From assembly GCF_013122565.1 (NCBI RefSeq), contig NZ_CP053258.1: a stretch of 64,000 bases of DNA; one strand, given 5' to 3'. The stretch comes from Escherichia coli. Lineage in GTDB: Bacteria; Pseudomonadota; Gammaproteobacteria; Enterobacterales; Enterobacteriaceae. The notes under the pieces were generated by a model that had not been told where the DNA came from, did no database searches, and worked only from the letters and a program-made list of their open reading frames with translations. This document shows, in pieces, positions 15,149-60,003 of this stretch; positions within the stretch are counted from its first letter, which is position 1; each line of letters begins with the position of its first letter. The translations under genes were made by a program, and so were the position numbers.

Positions 15149-15439
15149 TCACTCATCCAGTCGTTTAGTCGCGTCTTCATAAACGGCTGAGTTCTCTCTC
15201 TTACCAATAGATATCACCAACACGAGCAACTCTTTATCGTTAACCTGATAAACCAGGCGATATCCCAGTGTGCGCAGCTTAATTTTGTAGCAGTCCGGTA
15301 AATCCCGCAGTTTAGCCGATGGATTGCGCGGCCTTTTTAGCAAATCCTCAAGCTTTTTTTTAAATTGTTCCCGGACTGTCACGCCCAGTTTTTGCCACTC
15401 TTTCAGCGCCCGCGGATCAAAAGCCAGCTCATAGTTCAT
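15149..15439 (-). CDS. RelE/ParE-superfamily type II toxin (RelE-like)
   Basis: 96 aa from ATG at 15439 (MNYELAFDPRALKEWQKLG...YKIKLR..GYRLVYQV...LVLVISIGKRE), resembling RelE; overlaps upstream antitoxin gene by 11 nt; ORF-track start at 15517 is a non-ATG extension. Confidence 0.8.
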   Translation of the reverse strand: MNYELAFDPRALKEWQKLGVTVREQFKKKLEDLLKRPRNPSAKLRDLPDCYKIKLRTLGYRLVYQVNDKELLVLVISIGKRENSAVYEDATKRLDE

Positions 15440-15671
15440 CCAGTCGGACCTTAATGGCCTCTTGTGGGTTGGCCAGTCGTTCCCTGACAGTGCGTAACAA
15501 GGCTTCTTCACTATCACTGACAGTGAGCGTTTTTACCGGCATTCGTCCATTTTCCGCAACGTACTGAAACAGCAGCCGCACTGCTTCAGTAGGCGTGATA
15601 TTTAATTTTTCCAGCACCGCATAAGCCTCATTTTTCAGTTTGTCATCCAGGCGGACGTTAAGTGTGGCCAT
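15429..15671 (-). CDS. RelB/DinJ-family antitoxin
   Basis: 80 aa MATLNVRLDDKLKNEAYAVLEKLNITPTEAVRLL..., resembling RelB; GGAGG RBS upstream; immediately 5' of and overlapping the toxin gene. Confidence 0.8.
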   Translation of the reverse strand: MATLNVRLDDKLKNEAYAVLEKLNITPTEAVRLLFQYVAENGRMPVKTLTVSDSEEALLRTVRERLANPQEAIKVRLDEL

Positions 15672-15695
15672 TATGCCTCCGGTAATTATGAAAAG

Positions 15696-15730
15696 TGTAA
15701 TGCATTATAGCATTACATATGCATTACATT
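15696..15730 (-). promoter_or_regulatory. Putative autoregulatory operator of the RelBE-like module
   Basis: Perfect palindrome TAATGCATTA (15698-15707) plus repeats of GCATTACA at 15710 and 15721, 25-60 bp upstream of antitoxin ATG. Confidence 0.5.
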
Positions 15731-15819
15731 CATTTCTGGAAAACGCCTCGCAAAAATGGCGTCGACACGCAGAAATATGCCGTAGTGAAGAGAGATTTGG
15801 CGGTGATTTTACGAGGGGT

Positions 15820-15854
15820 AAGAAAGCGTTGGGCGGTAACGTTTCACCGCCCAA
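15820..15854 (-). terminator. Putative cybC terminator
   Basis: TTGGGCGG...CCGCCCAA stem (15829-15854) just downstream of cybC stop, T-rich tail on reverse strand. Confidence 0.4.
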
Positions 15855-15861
15855 TAAGGAA

Positions 15862-16248
15862 TTAACGATACTTCTTGTGATATGAATTGCGGGTCGTTTT
15901 CAGTTGCTCTGCAGCAGCCTGCGCTTCTTTTACTTTACCTTCATTTGCCAGCTTCAGCGCGTCGTCAATCTGACCGACCAGAATGTCGAAACCGTGGCGG
16001 AAATCTTTCATTTCCGGGCTGTCCGGTGATTTATCTTCGAGCTTCGGCGGCGTTGCTTTTTGCGCATCCAGCGCTGCGGCGCGCATCTTCGTTAACGCGT
16101 CTTTGACTTGCGCCGCGTTATCGGCTTTTTCGACCACTTTTAAATTGTCGTTGAGGGTTTCCATATTGTCTTCAAGATCAGCGGCAAACGACGCCGAACT
16201 GAATACCAACGAGGAGACTGCAAGAATAGCTAACAGGCTTTTACGCAT
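15862..16248 (-). CDS. cybC: Soluble cytochrome b562, full length with signal peptide
   Basis: 128 aa; signal peptide [22 protein letters not shown] then mature [15 protein letters not shown]... Confidence 0.9.
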
Positions 16249-16430
16249 TGCTCACTTCCTTTTTTATTTACACTTCATCCTTCACACTGCCTCATCGACG
16301 GCTACGCTCATTCGACCGGGTCACGTACTACGAGTACGCTCCCCGGCTCTCATTCACTTTCCGTCTCGATGCAGCGCGAATGATTTTGTGTAATTTTTTA
16401 GTTTATGGCGCGGCAGGTCGCGCCAGTTTT

Positions 16431-57218: not shown

Positions 57219-57269
57219 TTTTTATTTTTACCTATAGAATTTTAATCGAAAAAAAATAAAGGAAAGATT

Positions 57270-57749
57270 ATGTCTCAAACAGAAATTATTCTTCCTTCAG
57301 GAAGAGAACTTACTCCAGGTGAATATGGTTATGCCAATCTGGAACCTGGCGATCACTACCAGACTCCCGGTCTTAACGTAACAGAGTCACAGATTGTTGC
57401 TTTTGCGGGGATAAGCGGTGATTTTTTCGATGTTCATATGGATGATGAATTTGCAAGGGAAAAAGGATTTCCAGGACGCATTGCCCACGGTCTGTTAGGT
57501 TTAGCATTGACGGACGGCCTGAAGAATCGTTCTATTGTACGTTTACGTGCAGTTGCTACATTAAACTGGAACTGGTCATTCTGTGCACCATTATTGCCTG
57601 GAGATCATATTCACGCCGTTATTACTGTTGTTAAAAAACGCCCCACCAAACGTGAAGACCGAGGCATTGTGACTTTTGCTTTACAATTGTTTAATCAACA
57701 TGGAAAGATAATACAGCGAGGCGAAACTCTGCTGATGATGATGCAATAA
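57270..57749 (+). CDS. MaoC-like (R)-specific enoyl-CoA hydratase/dehydratase
   Basis: 159 aa hot-dog-fold-type sequence; GGAAAG RBS. Confidence 0.7.
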   Translation: MSQTEIILPSGRELTPGEYGYANLEPGDHYQTPGLNVTESQIVAFAGISGDFFDVHMDDEFAREKGFPGRIAHGLLGLALTDGLKNRSIVRLRAVATLNWNWSFCAPLLPGDHIHAVITVVKKRPTKREDRGIVTFALQLFNQHGKIIQRGETLLMMMQ

Positions 57750-57868
57750 TCTGAGTTTGAAATACGTACCAACGAGTATGCTGGTACGTATTTCTTCGCA
57801 AACGCACTGTTTATGCTCTCTCCCTCATAATGACTGTTTCATCTAACTAATATTTCTAAATAACTGTC

Positions 57869-59137
57869 CTAAATTGACGACCTGAATGCCTCTGCCATTA
57901 ACTCTTGCTCACGATCAGGTAATCTAAGACGCTCGGCAATAGTTTGCCACTGACTGACAATCCCTCTAAAATTAGCAATAATGTCATCAGCTTCCGTCAA
58001 ACTAAGTCGAAAATACTCTGCAACTTCTCTAGCTAATTCCAAATCAAGTGCATTATCATTTTCCGTAATATTAAGCTTTAAACCGTCAGATCTGGAAACA
58101 GGATTCAAATCATATGCTTCAGAAAGCCGCCAACCTTTTCCCGGTATCAAGATATATCCATGATTACGTAAATGATCATCGGTATTAGAAACAAGAATAT
58201 TAAAAACAATTCTGGACCAGAGTTCTTTAAGGTCAGTATTGGTCTGCGCTCCGTGCCTGATAAGAACATCTGCTAATTCCAGATAACTTACACCTGTAGA
58301 GGCATCTTCACCATCCTGATGTCTGGTTAGTGTCATAGCCGAAGCAAAATGCAGACGCCTTCCCGCATTAGTGCGGTCAAAACGACGAACCATAAAACAA
58401 TGGTAATTGCTGGCAAATTTATGCGCCTGAGCAGGTGCAACATTCAGTCCACAGCCAACAGCAAGCGCATTAACGACCATTTCCCATCCACCAACATCAT
58501 ACTCATCTTTTGCACTGGGAAATTTAGCGATGTAAAGATGTCCGGCTTCATCAACCACACTGGCTTTTGGACGTGCACCCCCTAATGATCCCCCCGGAGC
58601 GATTAGCATTCTTAACCATTTTTGCCCCATGAGTTCTTTATTATCAGGATCTTCTTCAATTGCCCGGCTAGCCCTTTCCAGACTCGCTATTTCGGTAAAT
58701 GGTGGGGCTGCAACATTAATGCGGTTATCAAGAAACTCTCCAGCGTCTTCACGTTTGTATCGAAGAGCCCCAACCCGATAAAGATCATGAACACCTAATA
58801 GATAGTCAGACTCATAAAGGTGGGAGTCTTTATCAAATAACCCATCTCGAATATCCCTCTCAAAACGACGCTTCATTAGCATACGCCCCCAACGATCCGG
58901 GCAGGAATCACTAAACGCACCAAATTTATCCTTTGGAGGAATTGGGTACTGTGCTCCCTCATACAACATTATTTCAGGATCTAACTGAATGAAATTAAGT
59001 GCACGATCTGCAAGCGCCTTTTTATCGTACTCAAACTCAAATATCTCACGCGCCCGAGTGCGACGACTGTGTAAATAACCAATACGCGCAGGACCATCCA
59101 GGCCTTCCCAATCCGCATACACTCCGATTAATGCCAT
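57869..59137 (-). CDS. HipA-family serine/threonine kinase (type II toxin-like)
   Basis: 422 aa; HipA-like motifs GGSLGGARPKASV (P-loop-like) and DDHLRNHG (catalytic); AAGGAAAT RBS; 13 nt after HTH gene stop. Confidence 0.8.
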   Translation of the reverse strand: MALIGVYADWEGLDGPARIGYLHSRRTRAREIFEFEYDKKALADRALNFIQLDPEIMLYEGAQYPIPPKDKFGAFSDSCPDRWGRMLMKRRFERDIRDGLFDKDSHLYESDYLLGVHDLYRVGALRYKREDAGEFLDNRINVAAPPFTEIASLERASRAIEEDPDNKELMGQKWLRMLIAPGGSLGGARPKASVVDEAGHLYIAKFPSAKDEYDVGGWEMVVNALAVGCGLNVAPAQAHKFASNYHCFMVRRFDRTNAGRRLHFASAMTLTRHQDGEDASTGVSYLELADVLIRHGAQTNTDLKELWSRIVFNILVSNTDDHLRNHGYILIPGKGWRLSEAYDLNPVSRSDGLKLNITENDNALDLELAREVAEYFRLSLTEADDIIANFRGIVSQWQTIAERLRLPDREQELMAEAFRSSI

Positions 59138-59150
59138 AATTAATTTCCTT

Positions 59151-59642
59151 TTATCGGTTTTTTATCGGTTTTTTTATCGGTTGTAATAGTGCAGCAAGAG
59201 AGGTTGACGTTTCCCCTGGAATAGTTGGCGTTGAGTCTTTTGCCAGTGCTGTTAAATCCGTGGTGAGATGACCTTCTTTCTCGCGTTTCGTCTGAAATGA
59301 GGCTGTCTGAATCCCTTCTTCATTCTTAACTGATGAACGAGAAAGCCCTCTTTTTTTAATCAAACGGGAATCCTGGAGCTGATGCCCTAAGGCGTCTTCA
59401 GCTGCAAGCTTATTTAAATCCGTTTCCAGGCCCAAAACCTGCATCACAGACAAATATGCCCCTATCGTGACCCCTGCACTTCCTGCCTCCAGAGAACGCA
59501 ATGTGATTGGCGACATCCCTGCACGCTCAGCAACTTGCTTTGCGGTTAGCTTACGTCGTAAACGAGCAAGTTTCAGACGCTCACCAAATTCACTAAGCAT
59601 CTGATTCGTATAAGGGAGTAACGGTGCTGTTTTTTTACCCAT
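59151..59642 (-). CDS. XRE-family HTH protein with long low-complexity C-terminal tail (HipB-like antitoxin candidate)
   Basis: 163 aa; HTH in [39 protein letters not shown]; about 80-aa S/T/K-rich tail ending [10 protein letters not shown]; start may instead be the internal ATG at 59600. Confidence 0.7.
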
Positions 59643-59664
59643 AGTGATAATATTTTATCTTTTT

Positions 59665-59681
59665 ATGGCTATGATAGCCAT
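59665..59681. promoter_or_regulatory. 17-bp perfect palindrome ATGGCTATgATAGCCAT upstream of the HTH gene; candidate operator
   Basis: Read directly; flanked by ATAATATT direct repeats; 25-40 bp upstream of the ATG at 59642. Confidence 0.45.
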
Positions 59682-60003
59682 AATATTAGCATTTATTAGA
59701 TTGAACGCACCTGCAAAGCGTTCAGAATTATGGAAGAGATAATATCTTATCTTTTTATATATAAAAACAATAAAATAACAGCACATTAATATATAACTTA
59801 TTGTTTTTATTATCTTACAAGGGAGACACTCGCTGTATTGATGCTTTTGTCGTGTTTTATGTGTAAAAAACATGACACGAACTACCAGCGGCGAGACTGG
59901 GGGCTGGGGGCCTGGTATGGGTACTGCGAACTTTTTATAAAAGGAATAGCAAGAGATTTATGGAGGGAACGTCTATTTCTGCGGTTTTTATCACTTAAAA
60001 GCA

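Follow-up and report, generated by a model that had tools for sequence, protein, structure and literature searches.

The stretch of DNA analysed here (the window) is 64,000 nucleotides of Escherichia coli contig NZ_CP053258.1 (assembly GCF_013122565.1), and it matches the reverse complement of positions 4,423,000–4,472,000 of K-12 MG1655 at 92–99% identity. It contains three bicistronic pairs on the minus strand, each with an antitoxin gene followed by a toxin gene: a relBE-like pair at 15149–15671, chpSB at 26624–27219, and a pair at 57869–59642 encoding a helix-turn-helix (HTH) protein and a HipA-like kinase (referred to as hipBA below). The layout is compact, with an overlap of 11 nucleotides between relB and relE, an overlap of 7 nucleotides between chpS and chpB, and a gap of 13 nucleotides between the HTH gene and hipA. 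A first-pass annotation of the sequence had reported three toxin-antitoxin-like modules at these positions, each at an operon boundary or next to a terminator, with chpSB as the only one on the K-12 map in this interval. These points hold: all three modules are intact, their families are matched by Pfam and NCBIfam models, each adjoins a terminator or a convergent gene end, and the comparison with K-12 agrees. The mapping across the pangenome that had been suggested there revealed that all three are accessory. Among 5,426 complete E. coli genomes, the denominator of all such counts in this study, the relBE pair is complete in 389 (7%), chpSB is found in 3,097 (57%), and the hipA pair is found in 1,040 (19%); none of them is universal.

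In the relBE-like pair, the antitoxin gene (15429–15671, minus strand) encodes 80 amino acids and was matched by PF04221 (E 6e-16) and NF008412 (130 bits; cut-off, 96). The toxin gene (15149–15439, minus strand) encodes 96 amino acids and was matched by PF05016 (E 3e-14; 53.9 bits against 23) and TIGR02385 (31.2 bits against 27.9). Its stop codon abuts the stop codon of nrdG. The start codon is the ATG at 15439, and the same 291-bp gene is annotated by the Prokaryotic Genome Annotation Pipeline (PGAP) in other genomes; a longer open reading frame (ORF) starting with a GTG and extending to 15517 was rejected. The pair shares its families and its gene order with K-12 relBE and with STM4449-STM4450 of Salmonella Typhimurium. 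It is a paralogue of K-12 relBE at another locus, on the backbone here and in the Qin prophage in K-12. The toxin is 65% identical to K-12 RelE in a gap-free alignment, and the active-site residues of RelE, namely K52, K54, R61, R81, and Y87, are all retained. The antitoxin is 48% identical to K-12 RelB. The region upstream of relB (15672–15861, minus strand), delimited by alignment and a hairpin scan, may hold the operator. It has TGTAAT/ATTACA repeats around a TATAAT sequence at about 15690–15730, and the same hexamer repeats recur upstream of K-12 relBE.

Compared with K-12, a 708-bp block (15145–15852) carrying relBE replaces a hairpin spacer of 39–44 bp between the stop codons of nrdG and cybC. 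The left junction lies at the nrdG stop codon, where the window has CGT TAA and K-12 has CGA TGA, and the right junction lies about 8 bp past the cybC stop codon, where cybC is followed by a different hairpin (the cybC terminator, 15829–15854). No flanking direct or inverted repeats were found around the block. The cybC gene itself (cytochrome b562, 15862–16248) is intact in the window with 128 codons' worth of protein, while the K-12 copy is a pseudogene lacking 26 bp across the start codon. Besides the complete pairs counted above, 65 more E. coli genomes have a partial relBE, mostly relB only among the matches listed, and all copies are chromosomal. The pair is located at this very site, as the nrdG-to-cybC query is covered to 80% or more in 451 of the 454 positive genomes.

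Is relBE found at this site outside E. coli? I scanned 80 enterobacterial loci anchored on Fbp, with one genome per species. Among these loci, nrdG and cybC are neighbours in three groups only: Escherichia, Salmonella, and the Pseudescherichia-like genomes. Salmonella enterica subsp. arizonae has an intact relBE that directly follows nrdG and is 75% identical in DNA over 579 bp. The protein identities of RelB (89%) and RelE (71%) are comparable to those of the flanking NrdG (90%) and CybC (80%). The type strain of E. albertii has, at the same site, a frameshifted relE and a relB reduced to its last 22 codons. The E. coli species representative has relB only. Thus, the intact pair in arizonae and the decayed one in E. 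albertii point to a long-standing resident that has disappeared from most E. coli, and the simplest reading of these sequences is that relBE was present after nrdG before the split of Escherichia and Salmonella and has been lost many times since. In Salmonella strain LT2, STM4449 and STM4450 are presumably the neighbours of nrdG; the Salmonella locus checked here was that of arizonae. A relBE pair, STM4449, has been listed for S. Typhimurium (PMC8708949). STM4449-4450 is also listed in a retracted paper (PMC3868539), which was not relied on. In the Pseudescherichia-like genomes (L087, L089, and L090, around 5470–5960), an unrelated but conserved ORF of 144 codons lies between nrdG and cybC.

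The second pair, chpSB, lies between ppa and ytfP as in K-12. The antitoxin gene chpS (26968–27219, minus strand) encodes 83 amino acids, and ChpS scored 194 bits with NF008463 (cut-off, 101). The start at 27219 had been chosen correctly in the first reading of the sequence, since it gives a protein of 83 residues that is 96% identical to K-12 ChpS. The toxin gene chpB (26624–26974, minus strand) encodes a MazF-family endoribonuclease of 116 amino acids that scored 227 bits with NF007320 (cut-off, 129) and shares 115 of 116 residues (99%) with its K-12 counterpart. Judged by sequence, the window chpSB and K-12 ChpSB (ChpBI/ChpBK) are the same system with essentially no difference. An imperfect palindrome, GTTATAC..GTATAAC, directly upstream of chpS (27220–27264, minus strand) is a candidate operator. 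A terminator scan found a two-way hairpin at 27400–27419, shared with ytfP and located between that gene and the chpS promoter region. The end of chpB is located 76 bp after ppa, just beyond the ppa hairpin and its T-run.

Nearly all of the E. coli copies of chpSB are at this site, with 3,083 genomes covering at least 80% of the ppa-to-ytfP query. It was found that chpSB homologues, with 59–78% protein identity, also lie between ppa and ytfP in five species of four genera: Kluyvera genomosp. 1, Enterobacter asburiae, Trabulsiella odontotermitis, Cedecea sulfonylureivorans, and Cedecea davisae. Elsewhere in Enterobacteriaceae, the same gap holds other genes as read by eye: apparent methyl-accepting chemotaxis proteins and an outer-membrane receptor pair in some genomes, in Salmonella arizonae and Citrobacter youngae a protein of 375–403 amino acids followed by a small partner, and a different HTH/RelE-like pair in one Pluralibacter genome. 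Examples of such cargo are found at 11752–13712 of L019, 17763–19447 of L017, and 16504–17177 of L052. The varied cargo and the presence of chpSB in other genera suggest that the ppa-ytfP gap is an old variable spot and that chpSB is a long-term tenant of it.

What do the chpSB-negative E. coli genomes have? It was revealed that a 146-bp chpB relic lies between ppa and ytfP in 2,322 of the complete genomes. Adding the 3,099 genomes with chpSB sequence gives about 5,420 of 5,426. No unoccupied ppa-ytfP site was found among the E. coli genomes, as nearly all of them have either an intact chpSB or the relic. In E. coli DS566 (L005, 902–1047, corresponding to the window site 26603–27268), the relic consists of the last chpB codons and a frameshifted stretch that is 72% identical to chpB codons 7–48. 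The relic is almost never annotated; a hybrid form in HH45 is a partial PemK/MazF pseudogene according to PGAP. One examined genome, MS 57-2, has esiB at the site. An origin of the relic from the chpB of another genus was considered and rejected, since its DNA resembles none of the chpB genes of Kluyvera, Enterobacter, Trabulsiella, or Cedecea. Because chpSB-negative E. coli have the relic, the chpSB polymorphism seems to be mainly one of loss and decay.

In the third pair, the upstream gene (59151–59642, minus strand) encodes a putative antitoxin of 163 amino acids, an Xre-type HTH protein with a long low-complexity C-terminal tail. It was matched by PF13560 (HTH_31; E 4e-11, 43.6 bits) and by HTH_3, while the match with TIGR03070 (couple_hipB) was sub-threshold. 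The downstream gene (57869–59137, minus strand) encodes a HipA-family serine/threonine kinase of 422 amino acids, matched by the HipA_C model PF07804 (E 8e-47; 160 bits against 30.5). Residues S150, K181, D309, H311, N314, and D332 of HipA align with S184, K205, D320, H322, N325, and D343 of the window kinase. The core kinase motifs, which are the autophosphorylated serine of the glycine-rich loop, the ATP-binding lysine, the catalytic D-x-H-x-x-N, and the magnesium-binding aspartate, are thus conserved. The N-terminus scored below the cut-off of Couple_hipA PF13657 (E 0.038; 14.9 bits against 22.5); it can be aligned with members of its own clade, but its alignment with K-12 HipA is poor. The models of the named subtypes were not reached, with 44 bits against 401 for YjjJ (HipH) and 18 bits against 79 for HipB. 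By these scores, the kinase is a member of the HipA family outside the YjjJ/HipH and HipB NCBIfam equivalogs. It shares with HipBA of K-12 and HipBST of E. coli O127 the HipA_C domain, the core motifs, and an upstream HTH gene, but it is only 24% identical to K-12 HipA, the partner is 163 amino acids long against 88 for HipB, and no TATCC-N8-GGATA operators were seen by eye in the window leader. That leader (59643–59997, minus strand) is AT-rich and 355 bp long, and it may contain the operator: it has two 24-nt repeats (59643–59666 and 59735–59758) and a 17-bp palindrome, ATGGCTATCATAGCCAT, at 59665–59681.

A hypervariable island of about 10 kb between ytfB and rplI (49812–59997) replaces the yjfZ region of K-12, and hipBA makes up its rplI-proximal end. 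The first gene of the island encodes a TetR-family regulator (in K-12 a 3′ remnant of this gene survives as the pseudogene ytfA) and is followed by genes for a 3-ketoacyl-ACP (acyl carrier protein) reductase, a sugar-phosphate isomerase, a CoA-transferase, an FAD oxidoreductase, a major facilitator superfamily (MFS) transporter, and a MaoC dehydratase before hipBA. Other versions carry an enoyl-CoA hydratase gene in place of the MaoC gene. The locus versions of E. coli include the metabolic genes with hipBA, with yjfZ, or with a tripartite ATP-independent periplasmic (TRAP) transporter; an IS200/IS605 insertion in the TetR-family regulator gene together with yjfZ; and, as in K-12, yjfZ beside the ytfA remnant. 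The metabolic part (49812–57840) reaches only 79–90% identity with the versions found in complete E. coli genomes, and the layout of the window island is matched by one genome only, the pig isolate EC23HZZ201. This closest relative of the island has an internal deletion of 789 bp in hipA, with the HTH gene kept.

By conservation, hipBA and its leader constitute a cassette of 2.16 kb (57841–59997), the right edge of which lies next to the rplI terminator (60003–60029). The cassette is 95.7% identical to its version in an E. coli genome named ST80 (sequence type 80; L001), while the neighbouring island genes are 79–85% identical. The hipA pair is always chromosomal in E. coli, and its best identity to the window is 95.4% among the complete genomes; thus, the window allele is not closely represented there. 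Homologues of the kinase with 72–83% identity are distributed across Gamma- and Betaproteobacteria. The two-gene unit (an HTH protein of 151–171 amino acids and a 423-residue kinase) stands alone among unrelated neighbours in Enterobacter, Salmonella, Yersinia, Pluralibacter, and Burkholderia. The HTH partner is present in all homologous loci examined, and the Enterobacter partner is 68% identical to that of the window. These sequences make hipBA look like a two-gene cassette that has spread horizontally, which fits the picture of an acquired cassette. In Pluralibacter gergoviae (L099, 4543–6272), an HTH/HipA pair lies beside yjfF-ytfT-ytfR-ytfQ-ppa, in a chromosomal neighbourhood that the window also covers but at a different intergenic site.

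I consider it likely, at a probability of roughly 85%, that the three operons of the window are unrelated type II toxin-antitoxin systems from known families, that relBE and chpSB are old residents and hipBA is a mobile cassette, and that their closeness results from a plastic segment and chance. In a simulation, 3 of 12–36 randomly placed loci fell within 44.5 kb of a 5-Mb genome in 5–73% of trials. Thus, three loci within 45 kb are not beyond chance. Each operon is probably functional on its own, as judged from the sequences. From what is typical of the families, each antitoxin would bind and neutralise its own toxin and repress its own promoter. If the antitoxin were lost, the RelE-like toxin would cut mRNA on the ribosome, ChpB would cut free RNA, and the HipA-like kinase would phosphorylate a target, by analogy an aminoacyl-tRNA synthetase, so that translation would stop. 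By the comparisons made here, the relBE and chpSB operons are old enterobacterial residents that the window strain has kept and that many E. coli lineages have deleted or degraded, while the HTH/HipA pair has spread horizontally and lies at the rplI-proximal edge of the island.

Several points weigh against this. The empty nrdG-cybC spacer of the K-12 type contains no relic, and loss there is read from the outgroups alone. The chpB relic is 28% diverged from intact chpB, while its flanks are 95–98% identical. Such divergence means that the ppa-ytfP gap in E. coli has held at least two deeply diverged chpB lineages and that some re-acquisition has occurred. A position shared across genera could also reflect transfer via recombination in the conserved flanks. 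In addition, any one of the toxins could be attenuated in this strain.

Another reading, that at least one pair is an inactive relic in the window strain despite its intact frames, seems doubtful. Decay is indeed common at all three loci in other genomes. However, the window frames are full-length with conserved catalytic residues, and ChpB is one residue off the characterised K-12 protein. Moreover, the decay observed elsewhere hits the toxin and spares the antitoxin, as in the relB-only genomes and in EC23HZZ201, or affects both, which would be expected if the toxins were active.

Slightly less probable still is that three mobile cassettes were recently and independently inserted into the housekeeping backbone. 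All three pairs are missing from many E. coli genomes. The GC contents of relBE (47%) and of hipBA (42–44%; 42% for the whole cassette) are below the window mean, relatives of the RelE-like toxin (68% identical) and of the kinase (72–76% identical, in Azotobacter and Pantoea) are found on plasmids, and hipBA does act like a cassette. On the other hand, relBE and chpSB are found at these very sites in other species and genera, the ppa-ytfP site is filled in practically every E. coli genome as described above, and every module is confined to one locus wherever it is present in E. coli. No flanking direct or inverted repeats and no tRNA genes were found to mark any of the three modules, and no integrase or transposase gene is among the genes flanking them. 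The first-pass annotation had found the positions of the modules consistent with repeated independent insertions; an acquired cassette is seen in the hipA pair, which lies within a hypervariable island and not at a simple insertion site, but not in relBE and chpSB. Rather, it is likely that these two were inherited and then lost in many lineages, as proposed above.

A functional linkage of the three pairs, such as cross-regulation, joint stabilisation of the 45-kb segment and its islands against deletion, or a defence cluster, is very improbable: cross-binding between RelB paralogues is conceivable given the upstream repeats shared with K-12 relBE, and hipBA does sit at the edge of an accessory metabolic island, but neither the toxins nor the antitoxins of the three families are related in fold, the modules assort independently among genomes, the island occurs without hipBA in its yjfZ and TRAP-transporter versions, the clustering is within chance expectation, and PADLOC gave no meaningful defence-system match for the kinase and only generic HTH matches for its partner. 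The assortment was judged from sampled genomes. All five relBE-positive genomes sampled from different allele groups lack hipBA, and the two of them for which the ppa-ytfP region was retrieved both have chpSB; one genome labelled ST131 has the hipA island without relBE, and other genomes with this label carry chpSB. With unrelated families, independent assortment, and no tRNA or repeat marks, there is no evidence for a functional cluster.

The target of the kinase deserves a separate comment. By analogy, it might be an aminoacyl-tRNA synthetase. HipT phosphorylates TrpS. In a sequence search of solved structures with the window kinase, the nearest ones were HipT chains (E 3.5e-8), and no chain named HipA was found at E ≤0.001. 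In three of three Enterobacter contexts (L092–L094, 4265–7272), the HTH/HipA homologue is immediately preceded by a gene for a 334-residue tryptophan-tRNA ligase paralogue that shares only 26% of its residues with E. coli TrpS, while the outer flanks differ among the three. Downstream of these homologues are a SymE-like gene and P4-like or restriction genes. The adjacency of trpS and hipBA was rejected as a general rule, since Salmonella, Yersinia, Pluralibacter, and Burkholderia lack it. Because the nearest solved relatives are HipT and because of the Enterobacter adjacency, TrpS comes into question as a target. The window kinase may belong to a widespread, uncharacterised clade of Hip kinases whose target is perhaps not that of HipA and could be TrpS. 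The clade is characterised by a kinase of about 423 residues, a partner of 150–170 residues with a long tail, and 72–83% identity from Enterobacteriaceae to Burkholderia; no experimentally studied member of it could be identified. Similarly, the ratio of about 57 to 43 between intact chpSB and the diverged relic could represent a long-maintained polymorphism and not neutral decay. I regard these two proposals, taken jointly, as speculative and rather unlikely.

The three systems are already known and routinely annotated, and the additions made here are modest: the position of relBE common with Salmonella, the dimorphism of chpSB and its relic, and the cassette behaviour of hipBA. They illustrate that a patchy distribution of toxin-antitoxin loci in a "housekeeping" segment can result from the loss of old residents and not from new arrivals, and that chpSB-negative E. 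coli harbour an unannotated toxin-gene relic. Beyond such bookkeeping the significance is small.

The alignment with MG1655 revealed five larger differences between the window and K-12. Two of them are the relBE-bearing block (15145–15852) and the 10.2-kb island (49812–59997), which stands in place of 1.1 kb with yjfZ. The others are a small difference of 56 bp near 18455, a deletion near 41370 (about 41150–41390) of some 1.2 kb that in K-12 comprises qorB and the 5′ part of ytfH, and an insertion of 3,020 bp at 43226–46245. An Rfam scan found no known RNA at the three toxin-antitoxin loci. Its matches are expected elements that lie elsewhere in the window: the mgtA magnesium riboswitch (7517–7632), naRNA4 (24644–24722), and further matches at 34209–34388, 38960–39082, and 61488–61572, listed as ES036 and STnc450, ES239, and the rpsF leader, in that order.

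The 3,020-bp insertion lies between ytfE and cycA and contains two paralogous, co-oriented ORFs, one of 497 codons with a lipoprotein-like N-terminus (43277–44770) and the other of 393 codons (44803–45984). These ORFs gave no Pfam, NCBIfam, or PADLOC match above threshold, with only a weak match to DKNYY (E 0.0013). Of the 5,426 E. coli genomes, 269 have the insertion; both genes are listed there as encoding hypothetical proteins. Its cycA-proximal end has a repeat of about 135 bp (46059–46194), of which an E. coli genome has about 37 copies at 88–93% identity and which may be an element of the enterobacterial repetitive intergenic consensus (ERIC) or intergenic repeat unit (IRU) type.

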